Positions 29,990 to 52,494 are shown, counted from the first letter of the stretch. The stretch is DNA of 64,000 bases from an uncultured Chloroflexia bacterium (GCA_963728205.1 CAVSIV010000001.1:384001-448000); one strand, 5' to 3'. Numbers and translations are program-made. Notes: generated by a model from the letters alone, not told the origin.

Positions 29990-31528
29990 TTAGTTGGACG
30001 AGCCGCCCGTCACGAAGACGGCAAAGTGGAAGGCCGGCAGCTCCTCATTGGGGTGGTCCTGCCACGTCAGCTGCGGCAACCGGAACGTCTCGATGCCCTT
30101 GATCTCCACGCCCTTGTAAATGGCGGGGTAGAGGTCGATGAAGTGCCAGCCGGGCGCGCCGGCGGCGGGGATCTGGATGGTCACGTCGCCCTGGCTGTTG
30201 AAGCCACAGGCGTAGCCCAGGTAGGCGTTGTCGTAGACGAGCGTGTAGATGTTGGCCGTCTCGGTCCAACCCACGCCCTTCAGGTGCACGGTGATCGGCT
30301 GGCCAGCGGCCGCGCTGTCCGGCGTCACCTCGAAGATCGACGGCGTGACCGTGTACTTCGTGGTCGCCGTCGCCTTGTCGTCGGCAATCGCGTCGATGTG
30401 GTGACCACCGCCGAGGTCATCCAGCGCCTTGAGCGACAGCGAGAACGTCCCATCGGCCGATGCGGTCACCTTTCCGAGCGACGTCGAGTTCTCGGCCCAG
30501 CCGCTCCCGGACATCCGGTTCCCGACCACGCGGAACCACTGGAGGTCGAGCTGCTGGCCTACGGTGAATCCCGTCCCCTTGATCGTGATCGGCGTGTCGA
30601 TCGGCCCGCTCGCCGGGCTCACGGTTAGCGAGGGCCCGGAGCCGGTGACCGCGACGGCGGCCGCCGATGGCAGGCCCTGCTGCGCTGCTGGCGCCGGCAG
30701 GACCGGGTCGCCGGAGGTCACGTCGAACGTGAAGGTGAACACCGGGCGATCGGGCGTCGGGGACTGCGGGGTGTTGAGGTACGGGAAGTTCGGGATGCCG
30801 CCCGTCACCTGTACGACATGCGTGCCGGCGTCGCCCGTCGCCGGGATGACGACCGTCGCTTTGCCCTGCGTCGAGACCGCCGACATCCAGCCCGTGAACT
30901 TGTTGTCGTAGACAACCTGCCAGACGTTGTAGAGGTACTGCCAGCCGACGCCGTCAGCCGTGATCGTGATCGGCGTGCCGACCGGGCCGCTCTGTGGCGA
31001 GACCGTCACGTGCATCTCGACGTTGAACCCTGCCTTGTTGCGCACCGTGTCGCCCTGGGTGATGACGACGTCGTGCGCGAACCCGAATCCGTCGGGCACT
31101 TTGAAGCTGGTCGTGAAGTCGCCGTTGGCGTCCGTGTGGACCGTGCCCAGCGGCACGTACTTCGAGTCGTACTGCTCGCCGTGGTACGTGCCGTCGTCGC
31201 GGTTCACGTTCCACGAGCCGACGACGTTCTGCCAGGACACGGTCAGATCCGCGTTCGCGGCGAAGCCGGTCCCGGTTCCTTTGACGTCGGAGCCGATGGG
31301 GCCCGACGCCGGGGAGAGCTGGAACTTGCCGACGTACTCGACGACGGGGGTTCCAGTGGCCGTCGGCGCCACCGTCGGCGTCGGCGCCGCTGCCTGAGCC
31401 GTGGTTGCCGTGGACTGCGTGGCCGCCGTGGGGTTCGACGCCGCGACGTTGGACTGCCCGCCGCAGGCACCGAGCACCAGGGCTCCGGCGACCAGCAGCG
31501 CGGCTGTCCACATCTGCTTGAGATTCAT
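29990..31528 (-). CDS. Uncharacterised lipoprotein with four IPT/TIG-like Ig domains (ABAB repeat)
   Basis: LGAC lipobox; four SPxSGP-type domain starts; duplicated GVGW...YDN...QG...IPAxG..G.H block; GGAGG RBS. Confidence 0.85.
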   Translation of the reverse strand: MNLKQMWTAALLVAGALVLGACGGQSNVAASNPTAATQSTATTAQAAAPTPTVAPTATGTPVVEYVGKFQLSPASGPIGSDVKGTGTGFAANADLTVSWQNVVGSWNVNRDDGTYHGEQYDSKYVPLGTVHTDANGDFTTSFKVPDGFGFAHDVVITQGDTVRNKAGFNVEMHVTVSPQSGPVGTPITITADGVGWQYLYNVWQVVYDNKFTGWMSAVSTQGKATVVIPATGDAGTHVVQVTGGIPNFPYLNTPQSPTPDRPVFTFTFDVTSGDPVLPAPAAQQGLPSAAAVAVTGSGPSLTVSPASGPIDTPITIKGTGFTVGQQLDLQWFRVVGNRMSGSGWAENSTSLGKVTASADGTFSLSLKALDDLGGGHHIDAIADDKATATTKYTVTPSIFEVTPDSAAAGQPITVHLKGVGWTETANIYTLVYDNAYLGYACGFNSQGDVTIQIPAAGAPGWHFIDLYPAIYKGVEIKGIETFRLPQLTWQDHPNEELPAFHFAVFVTGGSSN

Positions 31529-31552
31529 GTTCGTCCTCCGGGTTGAACATGT

Positions 31553-31582
31553 CGCGGGCCCCCGCCTCGGCGGGGGCCCGCG
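31553..31582 (-). terminator. Intra-operonic hairpin
   Basis: CGCGGGCCCCCGCC / GGCGGGGGCCCGCG perfect inverted repeat between the two lipoprotein genes. Confidence 0.6.
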
Positions 31583-31592
31583 TCTGGATTGA

Positions 31593-32237
31593 CTAGGACT
31601 TCGCCTGGATCGTCAGCTTTGACGAGTCGATGTTGATGTTGGCGCTCGTGAACTCCGCGGTTCGGCCGTCGGTCGTCGTCGCGGTGATGGTGTACGGCAG
31701 GAGACCGGTCGGGTACCCCTCGGGGACAACCCAGAACTTCGACCAGAAGAAGTCGGTCGGCTGGGGCTTGCCGTGGCCGGCGTACTTTCCGTCGAAGGTC
31801 TGACCGTCGCCGAGCTTGATCTGCACCGACGCCATGTCGGTGTCCTTCAGCTCCTGGCCGGTCGCGGCGTCATAGACCTTGATGCGCCAGCCGAGCTCCT
31901 CGCCGGGGGCGAAGCGGCTCTGCTCGGTGCAGGACCGCAGCGGCACCTCGTCGGTGCTCATGCCCTTGGAACCGATCACCGTATCGGCATAGATGTAGAT
32001 GCGGCTTGCGGCCGCTGCCGGCGCCGCCGCGCCGCTGGCCGGCGCCGCCGCGCTGGAGTTGCTCGCCGCCGTCGCGGGGGCCGCCGCGCTCGACCCGCTC
32101 GACTGCTGCGCCGCCGCCGCGTCCTTCGCGTTGCTGCCGCCGCAAGCCGTCAGCGCCAGCGCCACGATTGCCATTGCTGCCAGTGGCAGCAGGACGCGCA
32201 GCCGTCTGCTCGTCCATCGCCTCACGTCAGCCATCAC
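31593..32237 (-). CDS. Uncharacterised lipoprotein (beta-sandwich-like)
   Basis: LTAC lipobox, Ala/Ser linker, domain ADTV...SCTEQSRFAPGE...WRIKVYD...GHG...WVVPEGYPTG; GAGGGAGGT RBS. Confidence 0.85.
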   Translation of the reverse strand: MMADVRRWTSRRLRVLLPLAAMAIVALALTACGGSNAKDAAAAQQSSGSSAAAPATAASNSSAAAPASGAAAPAAAASRIYIYADTVIGSKGMSTDEVPLRSCTEQSRFAPGEELGWRIKVYDAATGQELKDTDMASVQIKLGDGQTFDGKYAGHGKPQPTDFFWSKFWVVPEGYPTGLLPYTITATTTDGRTAEFTSANINIDSSKLTIQAKS

Positions 32238-32270
32238 TGACCTCCCTCAATCTCTCTGCGTGCCTGCTGT

Positions 32271-32924
32271 TCAGTCCGACTCCAGCTCGGAGCCGGTCTG
32301 CCACCCCTGCGTTGCTAACTCGCCTGCGGCCACGGGTCCTGGGGCGAACCCGCGAGCCGCGGACGGAATTGCCGTGACGGTGCGCACGGCGACGCCGATG
32401 AGCGTCACCCACACGCCGAGCAAGAGGACGAGCGCGGCCCAAGGCACCCACTGGCCGACGAGCCCGATGCGCGGGGCCTCGGGCGCGACTGGCGCGGGCG
32501 CGCCTGTGACCACGTACGGGATCGGCTGCGACGTCGCCGCGGCGAGCGTGTCGCTGCCCTTGAAGTGCGCGGCGAACGCGACCGGCCCGTCCTGCTGCAG
32601 GCGGTAGACCCATGTCGCGGTCCCGCCGGAGGTCGTCGGCGTGGTGCCGAGCAGCGCTTCGGTCTGGCCGAGCACGTCGACCTGGAAGACAAACTGGATC
32701 GGAGCGTTCGCGACCGGCTTGCCGTCGGGGCCAGCCAGCTTCGCGGTCAGCAGGATTGTGGCCCCGACGCCTGGCTTCGGCGCCGCCATCGTCAGCGTCG
32801 TCGCGCCCTTGTCCGCGGCGGCCGCGCGGGCCGGCCACATCGCCGCCGCCGTCACGGCCAGCGCCAGCGCCGCGAGCCCGAACAGCAGGACCAGGAGCCG
32901 CGCTCGACGTGTCGTCGCGGTCAT
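32271..32924 (-). CDS. Secreted Ig-like domain protein with C-terminal membrane anchor
   Basis: Signal peptide, Big_3-like domain (LTAKL...G.P...F...A.F.G), TM segment WAALVLLLGVW; ATGA overlap with nrfD. Confidence 0.82.
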   Translation of the reverse strand: MTATTRRARLLVLLFGLAALALAVTAAAMWPARAAAADKGATTLTMAAPKPGVGATILLTAKLAGPDGKPVANAPIQFVFQVDVLGQTEALLGTTPTTSGGTATWVYRLQQDGPVAFAAHFKGSDTLAAATSQPIPYVVTGAPAPVAPEAPRIGLVGQWVPWAALVLLLGVWVTLIGVAVRTVTAIPSAARGFAPGPVAAGELATQGWQTGSELESD

Positions 32925-34300
32925 CGCACACCTCCCTGTGTCGCCAGCTCGGCGCGGTGCGCCGCGACGGTCTGCGCCGCGTGCTCCGCCTCTTCGCTGG
33001 CGATCTCGTGCATCTCGTCGATGGGGAGCACCGGGAAGACCCGGAAGAAGAGCATCATCAGCAGCGGGATGAGGGCCGCCGCCGCGAGCGTGACGAGGAT
33101 CTCGACCACGCTCGGCCGGTACGCCGCGTTCGCGGTGCCGCCGTAGTACGACTGGTAGAGGGGCGGGACGACGATGATGATGCGCTTCAGCCACATCGCG
33201 CCGACGCCCAGCGCGGCCGCGATGGTGATGCCCTTCACCGTGCGCGTGCGCGGCAGCAGTACGAGCGCCGTCGGCACCAGGCCGCCGAGGATGAGGAACA
33301 CCCAGAACAGCGGGGCGAAGCGGCCGACGAGCAGCGACTCCATGAGCGGGGCCGTGTGGTCGTCGAGCACCCACGACTCCGTGAGCATCTCCGAGATGGT
33401 CATGTAGAGGTACGTGACCCCGAGCGTGACCATCAGGAGGCTCAGGTAGCGGAAGTGCTTGACCGTGATGAACTCCTCCAGGTGGTAGGCCCACCGGAAG
33501 GCGGCGGTCACGAGGATCACCATCGCGACGCCGGACAGGAGCGCGGCGATCACGAAGTAGGGGGCGAAGAGCGTGCTGTGCCAGCCGGCGCGCTCGTTCA
33601 CGCTGAACGCCCACGCCAGCACCGAGTGCACCGATACCGCGAGCGGGATGATCAGGATGGCGATGATCGCCATGCCCTGGTTCACCACGCGCCGCTGTGA
33701 CGGCAGGCCGCGCCAGTTGAGGGCGACGATGCGGTAGATGCGCCCGCGCCAGCGGCCGGCGCTGTCGCCGATCGTGTCGCGACAGATCGCCGCGTCCGCG
33801 ATCAGCGGCAGCATCAGGAAGATGAATGTCGCGGCAAGGTAGGTGTTCACCGCGGTGAAGTCCCACACCAGCGGCGACCGGTAGTTCGGCGTCGAGAAGA
33901 ACTCCCACAGCCGATCCGGCCGGCCGACGTGGATCACGGCGAACAGCGCGCCGATCGCCATCGTCACCATCGCCATCGCCTCGGCGAGGCGCGTGATCGG
34001 CGCGCGCCACGAGGCGTGCGCCAGGCGCAGCAGCGCGGAGGTCACGGCGCCGCCGTAGCTCAGGCCGATGAACGCGACGAGGTTCGACGTGTAGACGCCC
34101 CAGAACACGCGGTCGTTGAGGCCCGTCACGCCGATCCCGTGGATGACCTGGTAGACCCAGGCGCCGAAGCCCGCCAGCACGACGAGGCTCAGCGCGCCGA
34201 GCAGCGCCCAGAAGCGCCGCCCGCCGCCGCGCATCGGTCGCAGCGCCGCCTCGGTCACGGGGTCGAGGTTCCGTGTCGTGGACAGTGATGCAGTCGTCAC
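32921..34300 (-). CDS. nrfD: NrfD/PsrC-family integral membrane quinol-interacting subunit (DsrP/ActC-like)
   Basis: GIGVTGL..RVFWGVY, PITRLAE, GRPDR, SPLVWD, VSVHSV, APYFV..A..SG, WLKR; ~10 TMs. Confidence 0.9.
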   Translation of the reverse strand: MTTASLSTTRNLDPVTEAALRPMRGGGRRFWALLGALSLVVLAGFGAWVYQVIHGIGVTGLNDRVFWGVYTSNLVAFIGLSYGGAVTSALLRLAHASWRAPITRLAEAMAMVTMAIGALFAVIHVGRPDRLWEFFSTPNYRSPLVWDFTAVNTYLAATFIFLMLPLIADAAICRDTIGDSAGRWRGRIYRIVALNWRGLPSQRRVVNQGMAIIAILIIPLAVSVHSVLAWAFSVNERAGWHSTLFAPYFVIAALLSGVAMVILVTAAFRWAYHLEEFITVKHFRYLSLLMVTLGVTYLYMTISEMLTESWVLDDHTAPLMESLLVGRFAPLFWVFLILGGLVPTALVLLPRTRTVKGITIAAALGVGAMWLKRIIIVVPPLYQSYYGGTANAAYRPSVVEILVTLAAAALIPLLMMLFFRVFPVLPIDEMHEIASEEAEHAAQTVAAHRAELATQGGVR

Positions 34301-34325
34301 CGTGTCCTCCCTTCTCGCGGCCGCG

Positions 34326-35186
34326 CTAGAACTCGAGGTCCTGGCCGTGGCCGGCGACGTAGTAGACGCGCGGTCGCGTGTTCAGGTCCTCGCGGAGGCG
34401 GAACGCGTCGTTGTCGCGGAGGTAGTCGCTGAGCCGGTAGGTCTCGGTGCCGTTCGTCATCATGTCGGTCTTGAGATCGCCCATGAAGATGGCGTTCATG
34501 CCGCAGCCCTCGACGCAGCCCGGGAGCTTGCCGACGCGCGTGTTGTGCACGCACATCACGCACTTGCCGGCCGTGCCCTTGATCTGCGGCGTGGGGAACT
34601 CCGGGGTCGGCCCCGTCAGCGAGGCCGGCGTCGGCAGCGGATCGCGCCAGTTGAACGTGCGCGCCTCGTAGGGGCAGGCCGCCAGGCAGGCCCGGCAGCC
34701 GATGCAGCGCTTCTCGTCGACCAGCGTGACGCCGTCCGCGGTGCGGAACGTCGCGCCCACCGGGCAGACCTTCAGGCAGGGCGGGTCCTCGCACTGCATG
34801 CACGGCTGCGGCAGGAAGTACGTCTGGCCGGCGCTGTCCTGCAGCTCGTGGACCTTGATCCACGGCTGATCGGGGTGGAGGTAGTGCATCGCGTTGCACG
34901 CGTCCGTGCACTTGCCGCAGCCGTCGCACCGGCGGAGGTCGAAGACCATCACCCACTGGTGGTTCGCGAGGTCCGGCTGCTCGTTCGCGGCCTCGGTGGG
35001 GCGTGTGCGGCCGATCACGGGGATGCCGAGGCCCGCCGCCGCAGCCACGCCGGCCGCGGTGCCGAGCCCCGTCATGAGGCGGCGCCGCGACAGTCGCGAC
35101 CCGCCTCGCCCGCGCTCGCCCGCCGTGCTCGCTTCCGCGAGCGGGGTGTTCTCGCCGGTTTCAGGTCCGCTGGATGGGTCCGTCAT
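34326..35186 (-). CDS. Tat-exported 4x[4Fe-4S] ferredoxin-like subunit (NrfC/DsrO/QrcC-like)
   Basis: SRRRLM Tat motif; CDGCGKCTDAC, CMQCEDPPCLKVCP, CIGCRACLAACPY, CVMC...CVEGC; RTFNW; TRPRVYY. Confidence 0.92.
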   Translation of the reverse strand: MTDPSSGPETGENTPLAEASTAGERGRGGSRLSRRRLMTGLGTAAGVAAAAGLGIPVIGRTRPTEAANEQPDLANHQWVMVFDLRRCDGCGKCTDACNAMHYLHPDQPWIKVHELQDSAGQTYFLPQPCMQCEDPPCLKVCPVGATFRTADGVTLVDEKRCIGCRACLAACPYEARTFNWRDPLPTPASLTGPTPEFPTPQIKGTAGKCVMCVHNTRVGKLPGCVEGCGMNAIFMGDLKTDMMTNGTETYRLSDYLRDNDAFRLREDLNTRPRVYYVAGHGQDLEF

Positions 35187-37785: not shown

Positions 37786-37990
37786 GCGCACGCTCCCGCG
37801 CGCCGCAGCGAGCAGGGTGCGTCAGCGCGCTGTTTCCAGGTCCGGTGAATGCGTGTCCGCCACCCGCTGGGAGGCGCGCGGTGGGTCGCGACCGGAGGTC
37901 GCGCCCCGACCGACGCGGCTCGCCCGGACACGGCGAGCGGCGGGTGCCGCCCGCCGCTCACGCGACCCACCAGACCCGGCGGCTATGCGG

Positions 37991-38510
37991 TCACAGCGCC
38001 AGCCCCTGCACGTCGATCACGGAGCAGCAGGCCGCGTCGCCCCACTTCTTCTCGCCCACCACGCTGTCCGAGGCCCGCACGCCCAGCGCCTCGATCCGAG
38101 CCGCGGCGCCGGTGCCACGACGGGCACGCCGTCACCGTGTGCCAGCTCGCATCCTCGAACGCGCGGTAGACCGGGCACTCCGCGTTCTCGATGCGGATCG
38201 TGCCGGGCGTCTCGCGCTTCACCTGGCCGGCGAAGCCCTCGGGCGGCGCGAACACCGCCAGCGCCAGCTCGATCAGGTCGAGTGCCTGCTCCACCGTCTC
38301 CACCCGCTCGACGTCGACCTCGCGCATCAGGTCGCGCATCGCGTCGGCCGAGCGCTGCCGCTCGAGCTCGAGGAAGTGCACGTTCGCGATCAGCCAGCCG
38401 TCGCTGCGGACGGATCCGGGTAGCCAGGAGAGGTCCGCGGCGTAGGGGTGGCGGGCGCGCAGCGCCTCCACCTGCTCCTCCGTGAGCGCCAGCGGGACGG
38501 TCGTCGTCAT
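37991..38510 (-). CDS. Hypothetical protein, V4R/ATC-hydrolase-like fold; +1 frameshift near 38098
   Basis: ECPVY...TAC...; removing one base gives GWIEALG...KKWGDAACC...*; GAGGT RBS. Confidence 0.6.
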
Positions 38511-38844
38511 CTCGCACCTCGATGTCTCGAATGAGCGGCTCTGAAGGGATGTTCGGGCCCGGAGCCGCGCGTGGCATCGGCCGAGCGGCGGGCGGCGCGG
38601 GCGGTATTTCGTACAGCATGAGCGGCGGGCGCGTGCGCGAAGCCGCATGCCGGCATCCGCCCCTCGGACGCGCCGGAACCGCGTCGCGTCGTGCGCGCAC
38701 ACAGCGCCGAGTCGGACGTGGACCGGGGGACGCCCGCGACGGCGCACGAGCGCGGGAGCGCCTGGAGGAGGTGCACGCCCCGCGCACCCGCACGCCGTCG
38801 AGAGCGAGTCGGACGAACCGCCTGCCGGCAATCCGCCCGAGACA

Positions 38845-39345
38845 TCAGGCCGCGGCCACCGCCGCCGACCTCCGCCGAGGCGGGATCGCGAACGCGCCGA
38901 TCCCGGGCTGCACGAGACGCATGAAGTCCTGCGTGCGCATCGAAATCGACTGCGTGTGCGTTCCCGCCGAGAAGACGATCTGCTCGTCCTCGGTGAGCGA
39001 CCGGTCCACGAAGACCGGCACGTGGTAGAGGTTGCCAAAGGGCGGCATCGCGCCGACCTCGCAGTCGCGGAACGTCTCCGCGAACTGCGATTCGCACGAC
39101 AGCATCACGTCGAGCGCGCCCATCAGCTCCGCGACGCGCCAGATGTTCACGCGGTGCGTGGCCGGCACGACGAGCATCACCAGGCGGCCGTCCGCCTCGA
39201 TCATCACCACCTTCGCGACCCCGCGGCCCGGCACGTGCTCGCAGGCCGCGATCTCCGACGCCGTATAGGCGAGCGGGTGCTCCTGCAACTCGAACGGCAC
39301 GCCGTGCCCAATGAGGTACGAAAGCAGGTTCTGAGCGGCGGTCAT
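38845..39345 (-). CDS. YbaK/EbsC (aminoacyl-tRNA deacylase-like) protein
   Basis: HPLAYTA, VAKVV, DCEVGAMPPFG, FSAGTH; GAGGAGG RBS. Confidence 0.9.
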   Translation of the reverse strand: MTAAQNLLSYLIGHGVPFELQEHPLAYTASEIAACEHVPGRGVAKVVMIEADGRLVMLVVPATHRVNIWRVAELMGALDVMLSCESQFAETFRDCEVGAMPPFGNLYHVPVFVDRSLTEDEQIVFSAGTHTQSISMRTQDFMRLVQPGIGAFAIPPRRRSAAVAAA

Positions 39346-39490
39346 CCGGTGCCTCCTCGTCTGTCCCCGGCGCCTCGCCTCTGGATCCGAGGCCGCCCGG
39401 AAAGGTGGACGGCGTCGCGGCGCGCCCCTTCGCCGCGACGCCGTCGCATGGGGCCACCTCGCGCCTCGCGCGAGCGGCCCACCTGGGCGG

Positions 39491-41248: not shown

Positions 41249-41331
41249 CCGGACGTCTTCACACAGCATTCACCGAGCGGCGCGACCTTCTTCTCGACGG
41301 CACAGACGTGCCGCCCAAGAAGGAGACCAGG

Positions 41332-41805: not shown

Positions 41806-41900
41806 GCGAATCGGCCGCTCGCGAGCGGCGATCCGTCGGGTGCGGGGAGGGACGTTCCGCCCTCCCCGCACCGGCGTTCCCCGCGGAAGATGAGGGCACC

Positions 41901-42686: not shown

Positions 42687-43866
42687 CGCCGGATCCGGCC
42701 GCGGTCCGCTCATCGGCGGGCTCGCCTGGCGGCTCGCCGTGGGGTTTGTCGTGGTCACCGTCGCCACGCTCGTGATCGTGCTGGTGGTGGTCGACCGCCT
42801 GACGACGTCGGCCTTCGGCAGCTACGTCGGTCACGCCGGCATGATGCGGGGGATGATGGGCGCCGGGTTCGGGTCGGGAGGCGCCGCCGCGCAGCTGCCC
42901 GACCCCGCCGAGTTCACGAATAGCGTGCACCGCTCGCTGTTGCTCGTCGGTGCCGGGGGCGTCGCGGTCGCGGCGGTCGTCGGCGTCGTGATCGCGCGGC
43001 GGCTGACGCGGCCGGTGCGCGCGATGGAGCGCGCCGCGCAGCGCATCGCCGCCGGCGACACGTCGGCGCGCGTGCCGCGCGACGGCGACGGCGAGCTGGG
43101 CGCGCTGGCCGACAGCTTCAACGCGATGGCGTCGTCGCTGGCCGCGGCCAGCGAGGCGCGCAAGCAGTTCCTGGCGTCGGTGGCGCACGAGCTGCGCACG
43201 CCGCTGGCGGTGCTGCAGGGCGAGATCGAGGCACTGCAGGACGGCGTGATCGACCCGGGCCCGGAGCCGCTCGAGGCGCTGGCCGGGGAGGTGCGGCTGC
43301 TCGGCCGCATCGTCGGCGACCTGCACGTGCTCGCGCTCGCCGACGCCGGGGAGCTGCGCGTGCAACCGGCGCCGGAGCCGCTCGTGCCGCTGCTCGAGGC
43401 GGCGGTGTCCGCGATGCGCGACGTCGCGGCGCCGGCCGGCGTCACGATCGCGCTCGACGTCGCAGCCGCGCCGCCCGCGGTGCGCGCCAATCACGCGCGC
43501 ATCGACCAGGTGCTGCGCAACCTGCTGGCGAACGCCGTGCGCCACACGCCGGCCGGCGGCACGGTGACCGTGCGCGCCGACCGTGCGCCGGACGGCGCCG
43601 CGCGCATCGCGGTCGAGGACACCGGCCCCGGCATCGCGGCAGACGACCTGCCGCATGTGTTCGATCGCTTCTATCGCGCGGCCTCGAGCGCCGCGCGCGG
43701 CGGCTCCGGCCTGGGCCTCGCGATCGTGCGCGAGCTGGTCGCCGCGCACGGCGGCGACGTGCGCGCCGAGAACCGCGACGGCGCCGGCGCGCGGTTCACG
43801 TTCACGTTGCCGGTCGCGGTCGTCCCGGCGCCCGTCCCCGCGCTCGTGGGCGGGCGGCAGATATGA
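42673..43866 (+). CDS. HAMP sensor histidine kinase (BaeS-like)
   Basis: Two TMs around a HAGMMRGMMG loop, HAMP, AHELRTPL, NLLANAVRH, DTGPG, GSGLGL. Confidence 0.93.
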   Translation: MTSPDAGSGRGPLIGGLAWRLAVGFVVVTVATLVIVLVVVDRLTTSAFGSYVGHAGMMRGMMGAGFGSGGAAAQLPDPAEFTNSVHRSLLLVGAGGVAVAAVVGVVIARRLTRPVRAMERAAQRIAAGDTSARVPRDGDGELGALADSFNAMASSLAAASEARKQFLASVAHELRTPLAVLQGEIEALQDGVIDPGPEPLEALAGEVRLLGRIVGDLHVLALADAGELRVQPAPEPLVPLLEAAVSAMRDVAAPAGVTIALDVAAAPPAVRANHARIDQVLRNLLANAVRHTPAGGTVTVRADRAPDGAARIAVEDTGPGIAADDLPHVFDRFYRAASSAARGGSGLGLAIVRELVAAHGGDVRAENRDGAGARFTFTLPVAVVPAPVPALVGGRQI

Positions 43867-44006: not shown

Positions 44007-45518
44007 TCAGTCCGCGCCTTCGCGCGAGAGCTCCCCGTCCGCGATCTGCGCCGTAATCGTCGTGCCGCCGGCGCCCGACGCCACGGCGAACCGCCCCCCA
44101 ATCAGCTCCGCACGCTCTTGCATGCCCACGAGCCCGAAGTGGCCCTCGCGCGCGAGCGACGTCACGTCCTCGGGGACGGCGAACCCGACGCCGTCGTCGC
44201 TCACCGAGAGCGTGAGGCGCGACGGCTCGAACGCCAGCCGCACGCGCGCCGACCGCGCGCCCGCGTGCTTCTCCACGTTGCGCAGCGCCTCCTGCGCGAT
44301 GCGGAAGAGGGCGAGCTCCTGCGGCCCGCTCAGCCGCCGCGGCGCGCCGGTGACCACGAGCTCCGCGCCCCCCGCCAGCTGGCGCGCGGCGTCGTCGACC
44401 ACCAGCTCGATGGCCGCGCGGACGCCGAGGTCGTCGAGCACCGGCGGCCGCAGGTTGTGGCTGTAGCGGCGCACGCCCTGCAGGATCGTGCGCCCGAGAT
44501 CCGCCGCGTCCGCGAGCGGCGCGGCGACATCCGGCGCGGAGTCCTCCTCCAGCCGCTCGAGCCGCCGCACCAGGTTCACGAGTTCCTGCGCTGTGTCGTC
44601 GTGCAGCTCGCGCGCGAGGCGCTTTCGCTCGTCCTCGTGCGCCTCCGTCACCCGCCGCGCGTAGAGCTGCAGGCTCTCCTGGCGCTGCCGCCGCAGCACC
44701 GCGTTCTCGATCGACACCTGCAGCGCGTGCGCCGCCGCGCTCAGCACGTGCTGCTGCTCCGCGCCGACCGCCGCGCCCCGAGTTCGCGCGGTGAGCGTGC
44801 CGAGCCGGCCGGTCTTGCCGGCGAGCACGATCGCGATCGTCTCGCCCGGCGGCTCCGCCGCGACCGTCGCCGCGGGGTGGGCCGCGAAGCTCGCCTGCCC
44901 GCCGCCCGCGATCCCCGGCGCCAGCGCGAGCGTCAGCGACCGGAGGTCGAGCCCGGCGACGAGCCGGTCGAGGACCGCCGGGATCTGCGCCTCGATCTCC
45001 AGCCCCTCGGCCAGCGTCTCCGCCACGTCGTTGAGCAGCGCCAGGCTCGCGCTCGTCTGCTCGGCGCGCCGGCGCTGCGTCGTCTCGCGGTCGACGCGCC
45101 ACGCGACCACCACGCCGATCGGCAGGATGATGCCGAGGTGCGCGATCTCGATCACCCAGTGCGCGTGCTGCTCGTGCCACACCCACAGCGCCGGCAGCGC
45201 CAGCAGCGCTGACCAGATCGCCGTGAGCACCGCTCCCTCGGACCCGAAGTTCAGCGCCGCGTACACCAGCGGCACGATCAGCGCCGTGAGCGCGATGGCG
45301 TGCAGCGGTCCCGCAGGGTCCGTGTCGCCGAGCATCTCGATCGCGTAGTGCGCGCTCGTCGCACCGATCACCATCGCCTGGATCACCCAGAAGCGACGGT
45401 CGCGCATGTGCACGAGCAGGTGGCGCAACATCCGCCGCGCGGCGCGCCACGCGCGCCCCGCACCCGCCTCTGCCACGGCGCCGGCCTCGTCGCCCGGGAC
45501 GCTCGCGCTAGACCGCAT
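44007..45518 (-). CDS. Membrane sensor histidine kinase (HisKA_3), paralog of 36193-37785
   Basis: RRFWVIQ, VYAALNFG.EGA, EDERKRLARELHD, QEALRNVEKHA, DDGVG, FGLVGMQER. Confidence 0.92.
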   Translation of the reverse strand: MRSSASVPGDEAGAVAEAGAGRAWRAARRMLRHLLVHMRDRRFWVIQAMVIGATSAHYAIEMLGDTDPAGPLHAIALTALIVPLVYAALNFGSEGAVLTAIWSALLALPALWVWHEQHAHWVIEIAHLGIILPIGVVVAWRVDRETTQRRRAEQTSASLALLNDVAETLAEGLEIEAQIPAVLDRLVAGLDLRSLTLALAPGIAGGGQASFAAHPAATVAAEPPGETIAIVLAGKTGRLGTLTARTRGAAVGAEQQHVLSAAAHALQVSIENAVLRRQRQESLQLYARRVTEAHEDERKRLARELHDDTAQELVNLVRRLERLEEDSAPDVAAPLADAADLGRTILQGVRRYSHNLRPPVLDDLGVRAAIELVVDDAARQLAGGAELVVTGAPRRLSGPQELALFRIAQEALRNVEKHAGARSARVRLAFEPSRLTLSVSDDGVGFAVPEDVTSLAREGHFGLVGMQERAELIGGRFAVASGAGGTTITAQIADGELSREGAD

Positions 45519-46179
45519 CGAGATCCTCGAGGCGGAAGAGCCCGCGCTTGAGGCCGACGATGACGGCCTCCGTGCGCGATCCGACCCCGAGCTTCTCGAA
45601 GATGTGCGTCAGGTCGGCCTGCACCGTGCGCAGGCTGACGGACTCGTGGCTCGCGATGGCCTGGTTGCTCAGCCCGCAGGCCGCGAGGCGCAGCACCTCG
45701 CGCTCACGCTCGGTGAGGTCCTGGCCCGTCGTACCCGCCTCCGACCCGCCGGCCTGCGCCGCGAAGTGGGCCATCACCTTGCGCGCGATCGCGGGATGCA
45801 GGATCGGCTCGCCCGCGTGCACCAGCCGCACCGCGCGCACCACCTCCGCGGACGGGATGTCCTTCAGCAGGTAGCCGGCGGCGCCGGCCGACAGTAGCGC
45901 GAACACGTACTGGTCGTAGTCATACTGCGTCAGGATCAGGATCGCGGTCCCCGGCCTCAGCGCCTTGATGCGCTCCGTCGCCTCGATGCCGTTCATGTCC
46001 GGCATCGAGACGTCGAGAATGGCCACATCCGGCTTCAGCTCCTCGACCAGCCGCACCGCCTCGGCCCCGTCCGCCGCCTCGCCGACGACCTCGATGTCCG
46101 GCTCGCGGTCGAGCAGCTCGCGCGTGCCCTCACGGACCACGGGGTGATCGTCCGCCACGATCACGCGAATTGCCGTCAT
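45508..46179 (-). CDS. NarL/LuxR-family response regulator, paralog of 35477-36196
   Basis: VADDH, ILDVSMP, GYLLKD, LTERE...IFEKL; AGGAGG RBS. Confidence 0.95.
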   Translation of the reverse strand: MTAIRVIVADDHPVVREGTRELLDREPDIEVVGEAADGAEAVRLVEELKPDVAILDVSMPDMNGIEATERIKALRPGTAILILTQYDYDQYVFALLSAGAAGYLLKDIPSAEVVRAVRLVHAGEPILHPAIARKVMAHFAAQAGGSEAGTTGQDLTEREREVLRLAACGLSNQAIASHESVSLRTVQADLTHIFEKLGVGSRTEAVIVGLKRGLFRLEDLDAV

Positions 46180-46543
46180 GGTGTATGGCCTCCTGCGAGG
46201 CAAAGCGTACAGCGCGCCGACGCGGTGAGCCTGCGCGAATCGCGTACGCCCATCTGCGGGTCTGCGCGCTCTCACCCCGCCGTCACCGGCGCCCGTTCGT
46301 GCCGCCGCACCGCCGCGCAGGCGTTCCGGGTGCGATCCGGGTCGCGCGCGCGCGCAGCCGGCCCCTGCGCGAAACCGCACGGAATCGTCTCCTTCGTCGG
46401 ACCGTTGTTCGTCCGTTCGGCTCTGAGCGGCCACTCGCCCGCGCGCGACGCTTCCCCATGACGACACGAGATGAGCAGGGGGAGGCGAGCGAGATGTCCA
46501 TCCACCCGGCCGGACGCGACCGAGCCCCGGGAAGAGGCGCGCC

Positions 46544-47431
46544 GTGAACGTCGACCTGCCTCGCCGCGCGTTCCTGCGCCTCGCCGCCGCCGGCGGCGCG
46601 GCCGCTGCGGCCGCGCGCATCATCCCGCTGACCGGCGCGGGGACGACCGCCGAGGCCGCCGGCGCCGCCGCCACCGACACGGCCCGACTGCGCCGCTGGG
46701 CGATGATCATCGACCTGCGGGCGTGCGACGGCTGCCAGTCCGTGAACAAGCCGCCGCAGTGCACCGAGGCCTGCATCCAGGGCCACTACGTCCCCGAGCC
46801 GATGGAATGGATCCAGGTCTACGAGAGCGACCTCCCCGGCGGCGGCACGCAGTTCCTCCCCGCGCCCTGCCAGCAGTGCCAGAACGCCCCCTGCGTCGAC
46901 GTCTGCCCGGTGGGCGCGACGTTCCACACGCCGGAGGGCGTCGTCCTGATCGACCAGGAGCGCTGCATCGGCTGCCGCTTCTGCATGGCGGCCTGCCCCT
47001 ACGACCGTCGCTTCTTCAACTGGGGCCAGCCCTCGCAGCCGGCCGCCGCCAGCGACGTCCACTACGACATCGAGCACCAGACCCCGGCCAAGCAGGGCAC
47101 GGTCATGAAGTGCGACTTCTGCCCGGACATGGCCCGGGCCGGGCGCGCGCCCTACTGCGCCCAGGCCTGCCCGAACCACGCCATCTACTACGGCGACCTC
47201 GAGGAAGACGTCGCGTCGAACGGCGACCAGGTCGTCCGCTTCAGCCGCTTCGTCGCCGAGAACGCGGGCTACGCGTTCAAGGAGGAACTCGGGACGAAGC
47301 CGCGCGTCTACTACATCCCCGGTCACGGCGAGGCCGTCGGGCGCGACGCATTCACGCCCGGCCGGCTGCCCACCGACTGGCCCTGGCAGGACACGACGCT
47401 GAGGAAGGGGGCGGACACGTGGACGCGATGA
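46544..47431 (+). CDS. Tat-exported 4x[4Fe-4S] ferredoxin-like subunit (NrfC/DsrO/QrcC-like)
   Basis: PRRAFL Tat motif; CDGC-x8-CTEAC, CQQCQNAPCVDVCP, CIGCRFCMAACPY, CDFC...CAQACP; RFFNW; TKPRVYY. Confidence 0.92.
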   Translation: MNVDLPRRAFLRLAAAGGAAAAAARIIPLTGAGTTAEAAGAAATDTARLRRWAMIIDLRACDGCQSVNKPPQCTEACIQGHYVPEPMEWIQVYESDLPGGGTQFLPAPCQQCQNAPCVDVCPVGATFHTPEGVVLIDQERCIGCRFCMAACPYDRRFFNWGQPSQPAAASDVHYDIEHQTPAKQGTVMKCDFCPDMARAGRAPYCAQACPNHAIYYGDLEEDVASNGDQVVRFSRFVAENAGYAFKEELGTKPRVYYIPGHGEAVGRDAFTPGRLPTDWPWQDTTLRKGADTWTR

Positions 47432-48951
47432 GCTTCGGTCGTTCGGTCGAGCCCGCCGCCACCACGGCCCCGCCGGCGGCGACGGCAGCGACGGCCGCCG
47501 CGGGGACGCCGGACGAGGACGTCGACGTGTGGCGCGAGCGCCTCGAGGGGCGCGTCCTCGCGCCGCTGCGGCACACCAGCCGCGCCTACAGGATCTGGAT
47601 GGGCAGCCTCCTGGTCGTCCTCGCGTGGGCCTTCTTCGCATGGACCTACCAGGTGCGGCACGGCCTCATCGTCACGGGGATGCGCGACCGCATCTCCTGG
47701 AGCATGTACATCCTCACGTTCGTCTTCGTGATCGGCATCAGCCACGCGGGGACGCTGCTCTCGGCCATCCTGCGTGTCACGAAGGCGCGCTGGCAGCTCT
47801 CGATCACGCGCATGGCGGAGTTCATCACCGTCGTTGCGCTGATGGTCGGCGCGCTGTTCCCGCTCATCGATCTCGGGCGGCCCGACCGCGTGCTCAAGCT
47901 GCTGATCTACGGCCGCTGGCAGTCGCCGCTGCTGTGGGACCTGATGGCCGTGACCACCTACCTCGCCGGCAGCACCATCTACCTGATCCTGCCGCTGATC
48001 CCGGACTTCGCCCTCGCACGCGATCGGCTCACGCCCGACGCGCCGCGCTGGCGCCGCGCGTTCTTCACGGTCGCGTCGCTGGGCTGGACGGGCACCGAGC
48101 GGCAGCGCAGGGCGCTCGACCGCGCGATGACCGTGATGATGATCGCGATCATCCCGGTCGCGGTCTCGGTGCACACCGTCATCTCCTGGATCTTCTCGAT
48201 GACGCTGCGCACGCCGTTCAACAGCACGGTGTTCGGCGCGTACTTCGTCGCCGGCGCCATCTACTCCGGTGTCGCCGCGATCATCCTGCTGATGGCGGTG
48301 CTGCGGCGCCTGCTGCACCTCGAGGAATACATCACGAAGACCCAGTTCCTGGGTCTCGGATACCTCCTCGCCGGCATGGCGCTGATCATGCTGTATTTCA
48401 ACCTCTCCGAATACGTCACCACCGGCTACAAGATGGAAGCCGGCGTTCCCTTCCACTTCCAGGACCTGATGTCCGGCTACCTGGCGCCGATGTTCTGGTT
48501 CTACATCATCGGCGGCATCCTCGTGCCGCCGCTGCTGATCGCCATCCCGTGGACGCGCAACATCAAGGGCATCATCGTCGCTGCCGCGCTCGTGCTCGTC
48601 GCGATGTGGCTCGAGCGCTACCTGATCGTGATCGGCGGCTTCCGCGTGCCGCTGATGCCGTACGACCCGCGGCCCTACGCCCCGTCGTGGATCGAGTGGT
48701 CGATCTTCGGCGGAGCCGGCGCGCTCTTCATGTTCATCATCTCGGCCCTCGCCAAGGTCTTCCCGATGGTCTCCGTCTGGGAGGTCGTCGAGCACCGCGG
48801 ACCCGAGTCCGCGTGGGACCGGGCGCACCGCGACCTCGTCCCGGCGTCTCGCCGTGCCGAGCCGGTCGCGCGTCGCCGCGGCGCCGCTCCCGTGCCGGCG
48901 CCGGCGTTCGAGTTCGACGCGCGCAGCGCGGAGGAAGGAGTGGAGTCGTGA
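47428..48951 (+). CDS. nrfD: NrfD/PsrC-family membrane subunit (DsrP/ActC-like)
   Basis: GLIVTGMRD..SW, ISHAGT, ITRMAE, DLGRPDR, SPLLWD, VSVHTV, YFVAGAIYSG, WLERY; ATGA coupling. Confidence 0.9.
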   Translation: MSFGRSVEPAATTAPPAATAATAAAGTPDEDVDVWRERLEGRVLAPLRHTSRAYRIWMGSLLVVLAWAFFAWTYQVRHGLIVTGMRDRISWSMYILTFVFVIGISHAGTLLSAILRVTKARWQLSITRMAEFITVVALMVGALFPLIDLGRPDRVLKLLIYGRWQSPLLWDLMAVTTYLAGSTIYLILPLIPDFALARDRLTPDAPRWRRAFFTVASLGWTGTERQRRALDRAMTVMMIAIIPVAVSVHTVISWIFSMTLRTPFNSTVFGAYFVAGAIYSGVAAIILLMAVLRRLLHLEEYITKTQFLGLGYLLAGMALIMLYFNLSEYVTTGYKMEAGVPFHFQDLMSGYLAPMFWFYIIGGILVPPLLIAIPWTRNIKGIIVAAALVLVAMWLERYLIVIGGFRVPLMPYDPRPYAPSWIEWSIFGGAGALFMFIISALAKVFPMVSVWEVVEHRGPESAWDRAHRDLVPASRRAEPVARRRGAAPVPAPAFEFDARSAEEGVES

Positions 48952-49652
48952 ACCCCTCTCGCATCGCGGCGGCCGTCGCCGGCCCGCGTCGATCCAGCGT
49001 GCTCCTCGCGCTCGCCGCGGCGGCGGCGCTGGTCCTGGCGATCGCGCTCCCGGGCGCGGCCGCGGCGCAGGCCGCGGGCCAGCCCACCGCGATCGCCGTG
49101 GCGGCGCCGCGCAGCGTCCAGCTGGGGCAGGTCGTGACCGTGAAGGCGAAGCTCGTCGATGGCGGCGGGCAGGCGTTCCCGCACGCACGGGTCGACTTCA
49201 CGAGCCCCGAGACCTTCCTCAACACCACCGCCGACATGGTCGTCACGTCCGCGGTGACCGACGCCGACGGCGTCGCCACCGCGACCTTTCAGGCGCGGCG
49301 CTCCGGCGCGCTGACCGTGAAGGCGGTCTTCCGCGGCGACGCCACCTACGCGGGCTCCGAGGCGAGCACGCAACTGACCGTCACCGGCTCCGCGCAGCTC
49401 TACCAGCAGGAGGTGCTGCCGACGGTGCCCGGCCTGAACGCCTCGCCGATCGGCGAGTTCGCAACCGCCGGCGGGACGCGCTGGCTGCTGACCGGCTGGC
49501 CGATCGCGGCCGTGCTGCTCCTGGTGTGGTCGAGCTACGCGACCGCCGTGTTCTTCATGTCGCGCATCGCGGCCGCGGCGGACGCCGGTCCGGAGATCGC
49601 CGCCGCGGTCGCCGGGGCGGGCGGCGCCGGGAACGCTGGAGGTGAGCGATGA
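48948..49652 (+). CDS. Secreted Ig-like domain protein with C-terminal membrane anchor, paralog of 32271-32924
   Basis: Signal peptide, VKAKLVD...TDADGVA...KAVFRGD, TM segment VLLLVWSSY; GTGA coupling. Confidence 0.82.
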   Translation: MNPSRIAAAVAGPRRSSVLLALAAAAALVLAIALPGAAAAQAAGQPTAIAVAAPRSVQLGQVVTVKAKLVDGGGQAFPHARVDFTSPETFLNTTADMVVTSAVTDADGVATATFQARRSGALTVKAVFRGDATYAGSEASTQLTVTGSAQLYQQEVLPTVPGLNASPIGEFATAGGTRWLLTGWPIAAVLLLVWSSYATAVFFMSRIAAAADAGPEIAAAVAGAGGAGNAGGER

Positions 49653-50116: not shown

Positions 50117-50155
50117 CGGCGACACGCCAGTCCGGAGACAGCAAAGGAGATCCTG

Positions 50156-51256
50156 ATGGAACAGCAGCGGACAGACGGAACCGCCGGGGCAGCGGGTGAC
50201 CGGGACGGGCGCATCGCGCGCATCGCGACGGCGTCGCTCAGCCGGCGCCGGCTCCTGCGCGGCGGCGGCATCCTGATCGGCGCGGCCGCCGCGTCGCCGC
50301 TCCTCGCGGCCTGCGGCAGCAAGACCGACAGCTCCGCGGCCACCAGCCCCGCGCCGACGACGCAGGCCGCGGCGCCGGCAGCCCCCACCGTCGCCGCGCC
50401 GACGGTCGCGGCTCCCGCCGCGCCCACCACCGCGGCGGCCGCCGGCGGCGGCGCCTCCGCGCTCAGCGTGAAGGCGCACGAGGCGGGCGATCTCTTCCTC
50501 TACGACGTCGACAGGCAGTTGGTCGCGGCCGGCAAGACGACCTTCAACTTCACGAACACCGGCAAGCTCACCCACGAGCTCATGGTCTACCCGATCCAGG
50601 ATCTCGCCGAGATGCTTGCGAAGAAGCGCGCCGGCGACGACGTCGACGAGATGGACTACATCAAGGGCATGGCCGGCTCCGCCGAGGACATCGACCCCGG
50701 CAAGTCCGCCAGCTTCGACGCCGACCTCAAGCCCGGCCTCTACGAGCTTGCCTGCCACGTCATCGGCAAGAACGCCGACGGCAGCACGTTCCTGCACTTC
50801 GACCGCGGCCAGACGATGACGCTCGCCGTCACCGGCCCGGGCGGCCCGGCGGCGTCGATCCTCGACCCGAGCGACGCCATCGCCCTGCAGATGGTGAAGG
50901 GCACCGGCGACCTCGACAGCTCGTGGCTGTTCCAGCCCGATCACCTGGTGGCGAAGAGCGGCGACGTGAAGTTCACGATCACCAATCACATGGACATGAA
51001 CCACGACGTCGTCGTCTACCCACTCGGCAACATCAGCGACCTGATCAAGCAGCGTCTCGACGGCGGTGAGGACTACAGCATCATCAAGGGCCAGCAGCTG
51101 GCCGAGGATCTCGAGCCCGGCAAGAGCATCGACGCGACGGCCACCCTGACGCCCGGCTGGTGGGTCACGGCCTGCTTCGTCGTCAGCTCGCTGGCCGACG
51201 GGACGAAGTACGTGCACCGCGACCGCGGTCAGCGCGTGACCTTCCTCGTGCAGTAG
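50156..51256 (+). CDS. Tat lipoprotein with two cupredoxin (blue-copper) domains
   Basis: SRRRLL + LAAC; domain 1 THELMV...PGLYELAC-x13-HFDRGQ; domain 2 NHDVVV...PGWWVTAC-x13-HRDRGQ; AAGGAG RBS. Confidence 0.85.
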   Translation: MEQQRTDGTAGAAGDRDGRIARIATASLSRRRLLRGGGILIGAAAASPLLAACGSKTDSSAATSPAPTTQAAAPAAPTVAAPTVAAPAAPTTAAAAGGGASALSVKAHEAGDLFLYDVDRQLVAAGKTTFNFTNTGKLTHELMVYPIQDLAEMLAKKRAGDDVDEMDYIKGMAGSAEDIDPGKSASFDADLKPGLYELACHVIGKNADGSTFLHFDRGQTMTLAVTGPGGPAASILDPSDAIALQMVKGTGDLDSSWLFQPDHLVAKSGDVKFTITNHMDMNHDVVVYPLGNISDLIKQRLDGGEDYSIIKGQQLAEDLEPGKSIDATATLTPGWWVTACFVVSSLADGTKYVHRDRGQRVTFLVQ

Positions 51257-51452
51257 TCCCCGGGGGCGTGGACTGCGAGGGCGGGCGCGTGCCGCGGGGC
51301 GCCGCCCGCCTCTCGCCGTCCGGCGCACGCGCGCTCCGCGAAACGGCCCGCGGCTCGTGTGACGTTCGACCACGGTCGGGGCCGCAGCCGGCCGCCTAGG
51401 CTGGATGCGCCGGGATCGCGCCGCTCGCCACCCCGGGAATGAGGATGCCGCC

Positions 51453-51770
51453 ATGTGGGAATGGCATCACGGTGGTGCCGCATGGGGTTGGGGCTGGGTC
51501 TGGATGATCGTCGTGATGGCGATCGTCTGGGTGCCCCTCGTGTTCGCGTTCGTCTGGTTCCTGCGCAGCGCGGCCGGCCGCGGCCGCGCCGCGCCCGGAG
51601 CCGGGGACGGCGGCGAGGCCCCGCGGTCCGCAGTCGACGTCGACGCGCGCGAGATCGCCCGCCGCGCGTACGCGCGCGGCGAGCTCGACCGTGAGCGCTT
51701 CCTGCAGATCATGGAGGACCTGGGTGGCGGACCGCACGCGGGCCCCGGCGGCGGCGGGCCGCCGGCCTGA
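51453..51770 (+). CDS. SHOCT-domain membrane protein
   Basis: W/H/G/M-rich N-terminus, one TM, AREIARRAYARGELDRERF SHOCT motif; GAGGA RBS. Confidence 0.85.
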   Translation: MWEWHHGGAAWGWGWVWMIVVMAIVWVPLVFAFVWFLRSAAGRGRAAPGAGDGGEAPRSAVDVDAREIARRAYARGELDRERFLQIMEDLGGGPHAGPGGGGPPA

Positions 51771-51780
51771 GGTGGCGGCC

Positions 51781-52494
51781 GTGCGTGCGCACTCGCCGAG
51801 CGCGTTCGGCCGTCGCTCGCTTCGCCGCCGTGGCCTGCTCTGCGCCGGTCGTGCCGCTCCGCTCCTCGCGAGCGCGCTGCTGGTCGCCGCCGTGCTCGCC
51901 GGCTGCGCCCCCGCGGCGGGCGGCGCCGCGGGGGCAACCGTCGCGCCCACCGCGCCAATCCCCGCGGCGCCGACCGTGGCGGCGCCGACCATGCCGGCCG
52001 GGCTCGAGGGCGCGGCCGGTGCCGCGCAGCCGGCACCGACAACGACGCCCGCGCCGTCGGCGAGCGGCGCTCTCGGCGCTCCGGGCGCGCCCGGGGCCGG
52101 TGCACCGGCCGCGACGCCAGCTGCGAGCGCGCCCTACGCGCGCATGCCTGGTCCCGGTCGCATGCCGATGATGATGGGTGGGGCGTCGCGCTCCACTCCC
52201 TCGCCACGCGTCGACGCGACGCCCGGCACGCTCGCGACCCCGTCCGCCCCGACCCCGGCGGCGGCGACCTCCGCGCAGCTCTACACGGCGGATTGCGCCG
52301 TCTGCCACGGCACGTCGCGCCAGGGCGGGCCCGGACCCGCGCTCCTGCCCTCCACGCTCACGGGCGACGCCTCTTATTACGTGTCCGTCGTCGAGTACGG
52401 CGCACCCGGCACATTGATGCCGGGCTGGCTCGCGCAGGGCCTCACCGCCGATCGAATCCGCGCGCTCGTCGAGTACCTGCGCGCCGTGCCCTAG
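51781..52494 (+). CDS. Lipoprotein monoheme cytochrome c (NirC/c55X-like domain)
   Basis: LAGC lipobox, Pro/Ala linker with MPMMMG, LY...CAVCHGTSRQGGPGPALLP, YGAPGTLMPGW. Start approximate. Confidence 0.85.
   Translation: MRAHSPSAFGRRSLRRRGLLCAGRAAPLLASALLVAAVLAGCAPAAGGAAGATVAPTAPIPAAPTVAAPTMPAGLEGAAGAAQPAPTTTPAPSASGALGAPGAPGAGAPAATPAASAPYARMPGPGRMPMMMGGASRSTPSPRVDATPGTLATPSAPTPAAATSAQLYTADCAVCHGTSRQGGPGPALLPSTLTGDASYYVSVVEYGAPGTLMPGWLAQGLTADRIRALVEYLRAVP

Follow-up and report, generated by a model that had tools for sequence, protein, structure and literature searches.

Two inverted FeS/NrfD operons of an uncultured Chloroflexia bacterium as likely members of a family of molybdenum-free, ActC-type quinone-pool modules

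Pairs of an iron-sulfur (FeS) protein and an NrfD-type membrane protein serve molybdenum (Mo) enzymes in the Psr, Ttr and Dms systems, according to the review by Calisto and Pereira (PMC8076601). In alternative complex III (ACIII, ActABCDEF; structures 6F0K, 6BTM, 6LOD and 8K9E), the quinol site proposed for the membrane subunit ActC comprises the charged residues His139, Asp169 and Asp253, and also Trp82 (PMC5928083). Mo-free combinations have been proposed as well. Two reports describe putative menaquinone:cytochrome c oxidoreductases composed of NrfD-like proteins, 4Fe-4S proteins and multihaem cytochromes, in Methanoperedenaceae (PMC7327174) and in MBNT15 and Melioribacter (PMC9386147). 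In cable bacteria, the DsrOhPh-tetrahaem locus encodes a DsrO-like FeS protein, a DsrP-like NrfD protein, a small protein with a single transmembrane (TM) helix and a periplasmic cytochrome, and is discussed by its authors as a candidate ACIII (PMC13047784). Here we analyse a window of 64,000 nucleotides from an uncultured Chloroflexia bacterium (GCA_963728205.1 CAVSIV010000001.1:384001-448000), in which two operons, referred to as module A and module B, each encode an FeS/NrfD pair together with a small membrane-anchored subunit bearing an immunoglobulin-like (Ig) domain, the Ig/TM subunit.

On balance, and judging from sequence, modules A and B probably represent one widespread, uncharacterised family of Mo-free ActC-type quinone-pool modules that would work as menaquinol:extracytoplasmic-carrier oxidoreductases. 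Their complex would be composed of the NrfD protein, an FeS protein of the PsrB/NrfC/DsrO type, expected to bind four clusters and exported by the twin-arginine translocation (Tat) pathway, and the single-pass Ig subunit; the quinone site would be held by the ActC-type NrfD subunit.

Because the window has a GC content of 67-79%, its genes were picked by third-position GC; the called genes were scanned against Pfam and NCBIfam. Gene calls and domain scans agree on two inverted operons, module A on the minus strand and module B on the plus strand, and bear out the gene content given in the initial annotation, namely two FeS(Tat)-NrfD-Ig/TM modules, each accompanied by a divergent response regulator and histidine kinase:

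34326-35186, minus strand: FeS subunit of module A, 286 amino acids (aa), Fer4_11 match of 60.1 bits
32921-34300, minus strand: NrfD/ActC-type membrane subunit of module A, 459 aa, PF03916 match of 105.4 bits
32271-32924, minus strand: Ig/TM subunit of module A, 217 aa, with signal peptide, Ig domain and C-terminal TM helix
31593-32237, minus strand: lipoprotein of module A, 214 aa, lipobox LTAC
29990-31528, minus strand: lipoprotein of module A, 512 aa, TIG match of 32.7 bits
35477-36196, plus strand (divergent): response regulator of module A, receiver domain and LuxR/GerE helix-turn-helix
36166-37785, plus strand (divergent): histidine kinase of module A, polytopic N-terminus, HisKA_3 and HATPase_c
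44007-45518, minus strand (divergent): histidine kinase of module B, HisKA_3 and HATPase_c
45508-46180, minus strand (divergent): response regulator of module B, 224 aa, ATG at 46180
46544-47431, plus strand: FeS subunit of module B, 295 aa, twin-arginine signal and four Cys groups
~47521-48951, plus strand: NrfD/ActC-type subunit of module B, PF03916 match of 125.1 bits, start uncertain (47521 is a GTG)
48948-49652, plus strand: Ig/TM subunit of module B, 234 aa, Big_3_5 match of 40.3 bits
49649-50116, plus strand: TM-anchored monohaem cytochrome c of module B (Pfam/NCBIfam scan and alignment)
50156-51256, plus strand: two-cupredoxin Tat lipoprotein of module B, Cupredoxin_1 match of 30.1 bits
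51405-51770, plus strand: small TM protein of module B, no family match confirmed
51691-52494, plus strand: second monohaem cytochrome c of module B, Cytochrome_CBB3 match of 42.8 bits, probable lipobox LAGC, start uncertain

Five genes are shared by the two modules. As had been noticed before, they are paralogous, stand in the same order but inverted, and are well diverged, with identities of 26-50%: pairwise alignment gives 46% for the FeS subunits, 39% for NrfD, 50% for the regulators, 33% for the kinases and 26% over 87 aa (E 7e-5) for the Ig/TM subunits. The NrfD and Ig/TM genes overlap by 4 nucleotides in both modules, and so do the Ig/TM and cytochrome c genes of module B. Open reading frames (ORFs) taken from the longest start at the Ig/TM positions (32227-32931 and 48854-49645) proved to be Arg-rich wrong-frame translations and were replaced by those listed.

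The NrfD proteins link the modules to a described system. Both exceed the PF03916 cut-off of 25.8 bits, and the only matches of module B NrfD in the PDB are four ACIII subunit C (ActC) sequences, with E-values from 2.3e-50 to 4.7e-45. A profile of 32 family members aligns with ActC from end to end (E 2.2e-87 to 9.8e-81) and weakly with ActF; nothing further is found among its 7 PDB matches at E <= 0.001, and PsrC is not recovered at this threshold. The position of ActC Asp169 is occupied by Asp and that of Trp82 by Trp in 32/32 rows of the family alignment. By these comparisons the NrfD proteins are close relatives of ActC, and the family is accordingly no wholly new lineage. In the NrfD tree, module A NrfD falls into a separate clade with sequences from G023 and L038_2321; the tree carries a long-branch warning and does not settle how this A clade, the L021/L045 clade, the true ActC proteins from class relatives and the large B clade branch from one another.

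The FeS subunits are of a different type from ActB, and the sum of the comparisons sets the modules apart from ACIII. In the family alignment, 16 invariant Cys residues form four groups, which are expected to bind four [4Fe-4S] clusters, and the N-terminal half of the protein is most similar to PsrB and ArrB. Aligned with ActB, the module FeS proteins span its entire FeS domain, corresponding to ActB residues ~780-1020 only. Group III reads CxxCxxCxxxC in the FeS proteins (CIGCRFCMAAC and CIGCRACLAAC in the window), whereas in ActB of 6F0K and 8K9E the second Cys of this group is replaced by Thr (CxxTxxCxxxC), a substitution that we read as a probable signature of the ActB 3Fe-4S cluster FeS1; in the alignment with ActB neither window protein has this signature. 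ActB, with a length of ~1000 aa, furthermore contains an N-terminal molybdopterin-like domain, unlike the FeS proteins of 286 and 295 aa. Pentahaem ActA, the second NrfD protein (ActF) and two-helix ActD are missing from the modules, which in turn contain a single-pass Ig subunit; ActC His139 and Asp253 are not retained in the B type, and the cytochrome of module B is nearer to QcrC (~1e-19) than to ActE (1.9e-6). The similarity to ACIII thus covers ActC, the FeS domain of ActB and the presence, downstream in module B, of a monohaem cytochrome c and a blue-copper protein, a pair that presumably recalls ActE and auracyanin when compared by function. The modules thus pair a membrane subunit like ActC with a protein of the PsrB/DsrO type whose four Cys groups are full, and they lack most features of ACIII.

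Other FeS/NrfD systems were compared in the same way. DsrO and DsrP of DsrMKJOP head the NCBIfam ranking for the FeS and NrfD proteins, yet all scores lie below the curated cut-offs: 181.5 (module A) and 178.5 (module B) bits against 200 for DsrO, and 99.9 and 134.4 bits against 350 for DsrP. Neither operon encodes DsrJ, DsrM or DsrK, a statement that covers the operons, as no genome-wide search for DsrMK was made. The cytochrome of the cable-bacteria locus has four haems, unlike the module B cytochrome with its single haem, and the single-TM protein of the modules differs in bearing an Ig domain. The proposals for Methanoperedenaceae, MBNT15 and Melioribacter share with ours an Mo-free FeS/NrfD quinol module, cytochromes in place of a catalytic subunit and a basis in genomes only; their cytochromes are multihaem and are discussed for metal reduction, whereas the present family pairs one monohaem cytochrome with copper, haem-b or Ig lipoproteins and also has an Ig/TM subunit and its own two-component system. 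PsrABC and related enzymes with a molybdenum bis(pyranopterin guanine dinucleotide) cofactor (Mo-bisPGD) resemble the modules in their FeS protein with four Cys groups and differ in possessing a PsrA-type catalytic subunit, and the module FeS proteins bear their own Tat signal, as had been noted before: the twin-arginine motifs are SRRRLM in module A and PRRAFL in module B.

No complex of the module type is mentioned in the accessible part of the review by Calisto and Pereira (PMC8076601), and a literature search that covered few subscription journals found no published description of an Ig-containing FeS/NrfD family. The initial annotation had spoken of an undescribed family of modular quinol oxidoreductases. 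As far as our searches reach, this is correct for the Ig-containing family; the kind to which it belongs is already known, since Mo-free modules of FeS, NrfD and cytochrome proteins were proposed earlier as quinol:acceptor oxidoreductases (PMC7327174, PMC9386147 and PMC13047784).

The subunit by which the family is distinguished, the Ig/TM protein, has a simple single-pass architecture: a signal peptide is followed by the Ig domain and a C-terminal TM helix. The module B protein matches Big_3_5 (PF16640) with 40.3 bits, above the cut-off of 35.5, and the module A protein with 23.9 bits, below it. Homologs of module B NrfD number > 7800 in a set of 5.8 billion proteins, and the best 120, which are 65-91% identical, include 29 NrfD-Ig fusions, with Big_1 or Big_3_5 after the NrfD domain, as well as 19 NrfD-FeS fusions containing Fer4 domains. 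Direct reading of the sequences confirmed NrfD-Ig/TM fusions at L016:1074-3515 and L018:8260-10923 and, in proteins P0118 and P0068, NrfD-FeS fusions in which NrfD comes first. The linking TM helix corresponds in both fusion types to the signal peptide of the partner (Tat-like for FeS), an arrangement compatible with a cytoplasmic C-terminus of NrfD. Merged "FeS+NrfD" ORFs called in high-GC loci are of another nature: their upstream part is out-of-frame read-through and thus a gene-caller artefact. Because of the natural fusions and the overlapping genes, we infer that the FeS, NrfD and Ig/TM subunits would assemble physically. A complex prediction in which Ig/TM was the partner of FeS and NrfD scored 0.56, and the control in which NrfD was replaced scored 0.71, a result that speaks neither in favour of binding nor against it.

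Related loci were collected by a pattern scan of one genome per species, which gave 444 confirmed loci; the best 80 were kept, with a bias of the patterns toward the B type. Their hosts belong to Chloroflexota (Limnocylindria, Dehalococcoidia, Anaerolineae and SAR202), Acidimicrobiia, Gemmatimonadota, Acidobacteriota, Rokuibacteriota and a few other groups. Core and partner genes were counted as profile matches on six-frame ORFs, the profiles being built from subsets of the same loci. An FeS gene lies upstream of NrfD in 71/73 loci and an Ig/TM gene follows NrfD in 67/69; the anchored monohaem cytochrome c is present in 63/64 loci, and 61/64 have both the Ig/TM and the cytochrome c gene. The B-type core therefore consists of four genes: FeS, NrfD, Ig/TM and the anchored monohaem cytochrome c. 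The fixed core postulated earlier is real, but in B-type relatives it is larger than the three genes then given.

Downstream of this core the loci vary. Among the 51 loci with at least 4.5 kb of downstream sequence, a cupredoxin protein is found in 14, an EB_dh haem-b protein in 10, a pair of homologs of the 214-aa and 512-aa lipoproteins in eight, and an ORF with at least 4 CxxCH motifs in seven; 15 have none of these four classes. Two classes are combined in only three of the loci, and the cupredoxin protein never occurs with another class, so the idea of swappable surface partners agrees well with the related loci. Pfam matches there include EB_dh, HmuY-like and MtrC/MtrF-like proteins and genes for cytochrome c maturation. 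EB_dh (haem b, DOMON-like) replaces the copper protein in many relatives, for instance at L033:11546-12502 and L027:6364-7785; it is at times fused to the anchored cytochrome c, and an HmuY-like protein is often next to it.

In module B the carriers bear on the likely direction of electron flow. The anchor of the cytochrome c is N-terminal, a conserved RSPYTHxNL motif comes after it, and the closest solved relatives of the protein are actinobacterial QcrC domains. The two-cupredoxin protein exceeds the Cupredoxin_1 cut-off of 27 bits, and both of its domains keep His, Cys and His, together with a Gln four positions beyond the second His; in the alignment H140, C200 and H214 are invariant and Q219, H283, C340 and H354 nearly invariant, the Gln four residues after H354 being read off the window protein. 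This is the ligand set of a type 1 blue-copper site, and both domains would be expected to bind copper. The spacing from Cys to the second His is 13 residues in both window domains and four in the relative L017, which has Met at the axial position in place of Gln. Weak PDB matches of the protein are to lipid-modified azurin and auracyanin A. QcrC-type cytochromes and carriers such as azurin and auracyanin act downstream of quinol oxidation in known systems. Oxidation of quinol toward the cytochrome and copper proteins is the more likely direction. Our reconstruction of the path has electrons passing from menaquinol through the NrfD site and the FeS chain to the anchored monohaem cytochrome c, and from there through the two-blue-copper lipoprotein and the second cytochrome c to a final acceptor, for which the haem-copper oxidases of the genome would be candidates.

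The opposite direction was considered as well: Fe(II), Mn(II), Cu(I) or a reduced carrier would be oxidised by the copper, haem or Ig lipoproteins, and the electrons would enter the quinone pool through FeS and NrfD, as Qrc does it for cytochrome c3. We regard this as unlikely, though two features leave it some weight: the FeS protein belongs to the low-potential PsrB/DsrO type, and the quinol site has changed. The four full Cys groups, in the manner of PsrB, NrfC and DsrO and without the ActB 3Fe-4S signature, fit it; so do the best NCBIfam matches of the FeS/NrfD pair, which are DsrO/DsrP and QrcC/QrcD, that of the cupredoxin protein, which is the EfeO copper domain (E 4.7e-7), and the multihaem cytochromes, MtrC/MtrF-like in some cases, that occur in some Acidimicrobiia loci. 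It is at odds with the kinship of the cytochrome to QcrC and of the copper protein to azurin and auracyanin, and no recognisable substrate-oxidising enzyme is conserved beside the core.

A catalytic subunit of a conventional kind was searched for in the genome of the bacterium, which is 89% complete. The part of contig C1 to which the window belongs has no match to the Mo-bisPGD family PF00384; matches in the genome lie on C6 and C2 only. Within this assembly no NiFe hydrogenase was found and no coding-like ORF with > 2 CxxCH motifs, hence no pentahaem ActA. That the modules encode no Mo, multihaem or hydrogenase catalytic subunit, as first suggested, is in line with these searches. PF03916 has three matches in the genome, one in each module and a third on contig C6 at ~517900-522400, beside an FeS protein of 352 aa and an Mo-bisPGD protein of 880 aa. 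The C6 locus was considered as an ACIII and ruled out, having no CxxCH motif and adjacent genes for an Mo subunit and an FeS protein; it is an ordinary three-subunit molybdoenzyme.

The Mo-bisPGD proteins encoded on C6 would suit an explanation in which the FeS/NrfD pairs act as ordinary anchors and hold at the membrane a catalytic subunit from another place in the genome, such as an Mo-bisPGD enzyme, as such pairs do in Psr, Ttr and Dms (PMC8076601). We consider this very unlikely. One of the C6 Mo proteins adjoins FeS and NrfD genes of its own, the module FeS proteins have their own Tat signals, and the operons supply their own extracytoplasmic partners. The related loci also speak against it: when the genes of the 80 loci were clustered, each cluster present in > 10 loci included a homolog of a window module gene, and no Mo-bisPGD protein was among the 27 cluster representatives inspected. 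The expectation that orthologous clusters would have neither Mo-bisPGD nor multihaem subunits holds for the first, no such protein being conserved, but not entirely for the second, in view of the seven loci with at least 4 CxxCH motifs in an ORF, some of them in Acidimicrobiia. Clusters c17, c41, c49 and others near the relatives have no homolog in the window.

The family is widespread but sparse. At E <= 1e-80 it was found in 14/400 sampled genomes of the phylum. A and B types occur together in the present genome, in G023, in G065 and in the L021 metagenome-assembled genome, and G159 and G303 have one match each, of A type. When five relatives were searched at the DNA level, G023 alone gave a match to module A. 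The sole carrier within the same family, L112 (G023:C197:7000-19121), has a B-type core followed by two EB_dh domains; its divergent regulator is 62% identical to the module A regulator of the window.

Several observations weigh against the explanation favoured here. The position of ActC His139 is Asp in 31/32 family rows, His being kept only in module A, and that of Asp253 is Ile in 31 rows and Ala in one, so that only one charged residue of the three in the ActC quinol site is generally kept. The FeS protein is free of the ActB 3Fe-4S signature, and its redox tuning may therefore differ from that in ACIII. With four cytochrome b loci and four COX1 loci already in the genome, the need for a further route from quinol to cytochrome c is not obvious. 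None of three same-genus genomes (80-95% complete) yielded the family, and it was found in only 1/24 genomes of the same taxonomic family. Module A, finally, shows no recognisable acceptor in fold searches of its two lipoproteins.

Module A is a conserved haem-free variant of the module family. Its order, FeS-NrfD-Ig/TM-lipoprotein-lipoprotein with no CxxCH motif at all, recurs in G065, G303 and G159; in G159 the Ig/TM and 214-aa genes were missed at first pass and recovered by profile search. The 214-aa lipoprotein is predicted to form an Ig-like sandwich (AF2 pLDDT 70.9), in which Cys102 is nearly invariant among the aligned homologs. It gave no Foldseek match at E <= 0.001, and its best VIA-align Z of 8.7 is tied with generic Ig domains. 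A lead to FixH/YtkA from the ESM Atlas (0.80) stayed below the level of trust and was dropped; the other ESM Atlas clusters comprise only hypothetical proteins. For the 512-aa lipoprotein four Ig/TIG-like domains are predicted (AF2 pLDDT 66.8), and Foldseek returned only multi-Ig proteins, namely macroglobulin, S-layer and adhesin domains, with TM-scores <= 0.22. At least 2576 proteins belong to its family at E <= 1e-10; among the best 120, every source name given is "hypothetical protein". Four His, one Cys, and a Tyr, an Asp and a Trp are invariant across 43 diverse members. The FeS protein of module A would most likely face only the Ig subunit and these two Ig-fold lipoproteins.

The invariant residues leave room for a purpose other than respiration, at least in module A. 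The module could be a device for redox-powered metal handling or maturation of surface proteins, in which the Ig lipoproteins would bind copper, iron or a thiol-linked substrate, and quinol would supply the electrons for its reduction. The four His, the Cys and the Tyr/Asp of the 512-aa protein, the nearly invariant Cys of the 214-aa protein and the dedicated two-component system are consistent with such a task; the fold of the 214-aa protein moreover matches HftA, Tp34, P19 and CrdA with Z of 7.1-7.7, values tied with those of many unrelated Ig domains. We nevertheless find it doubtful, as the fold matches are generic, the module A operon has no transporter or chaperone gene, and no metal-site motif is recognised by Pfam or NCBIfam. 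A bolder version of the respiratory function, improbable to a similar degree, makes module A a haem-free and Mo-free terminal oxidoreductase: the four-domain Ig lipoprotein would be the redox or catalytic subunit fed by the FeS protein, its His/Cys(Y-x-C-G-F)/Tyr/Asp residues would constitute a metal or cross-linked cofactor site, and modules A and B would act as a matched pair.

Both modules have regulators of the same build, with Response_reg and GerE in the regulator and HisKA_3 and HATPase_c in the kinase, all above the Pfam cut-offs; the module A kinase gives in addition only weak hints of GAF and MASE1. A membrane kinase and a LuxR-type regulator, paralogous between the modules, would switch each of them separately. 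The claim of a dedicated sensor is supported by related loci, 34/57 of which have the regulator within 4.5 kb upstream according to profile search; it is divergent and immediately upstream of FeS in 20/80 loci.

Soil, groundwater and the ocean harbour abundant Chloroflexota and Acidimicrobiia, whose respiratory chains have for the most part been deduced from genomes. If the proposed function is true, a compact ActC-type module that plugs varied carriers into the quinone pool, among them copper proteins, haem b proteins, haem c proteins and Ig proteins devoid of cofactor, would be a common and unstudied branch point of respiration, as well as a minimal system for the question of how NrfD-type subunits couple quinol chemistry to the movement of protons. 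The A type poses a question of its own: which electron acceptor serves a periplasmic four-cluster FeS protein with no known cofactor protein present?

Some minor observations concern the remaining genes of the locus. The small TM protein of module B, labelled SHOCT in the initial annotation, loses this label, having no Pfam SHOCT match at E <= 5; its sole Pfam row is DUF4083 (E 0.4), and it has no homolog in the 80 related loci. The second cytochrome c has tblastn matches in only 4/80 of them. Two MFS transporters, an ArsR/MarR-like regulator and a PadR-like regulator lie 3' of module B at 53344-57549 and are not kept alongside the module in relatives. Between the modules, the ORFs 37800-39460 and 40966-41871 have no family match in the Pfam and NCBIfam scans; this interval also encodes a citrate synthase (39491-40804, minus strand, 452 bits) and an OmpR-type regulator with a HAMP/HisKA kinase (~41900-43866, plus strand). 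The flank of module A at 25300-29747 encodes a GT2-like glycosyltransferase, a stand-alone receiver-domain protein and a class I methyltransferase; the glycosyltransferase and the methyltransferase have DNA matches of 76-78% in same-genus genomes that have no match to module A.

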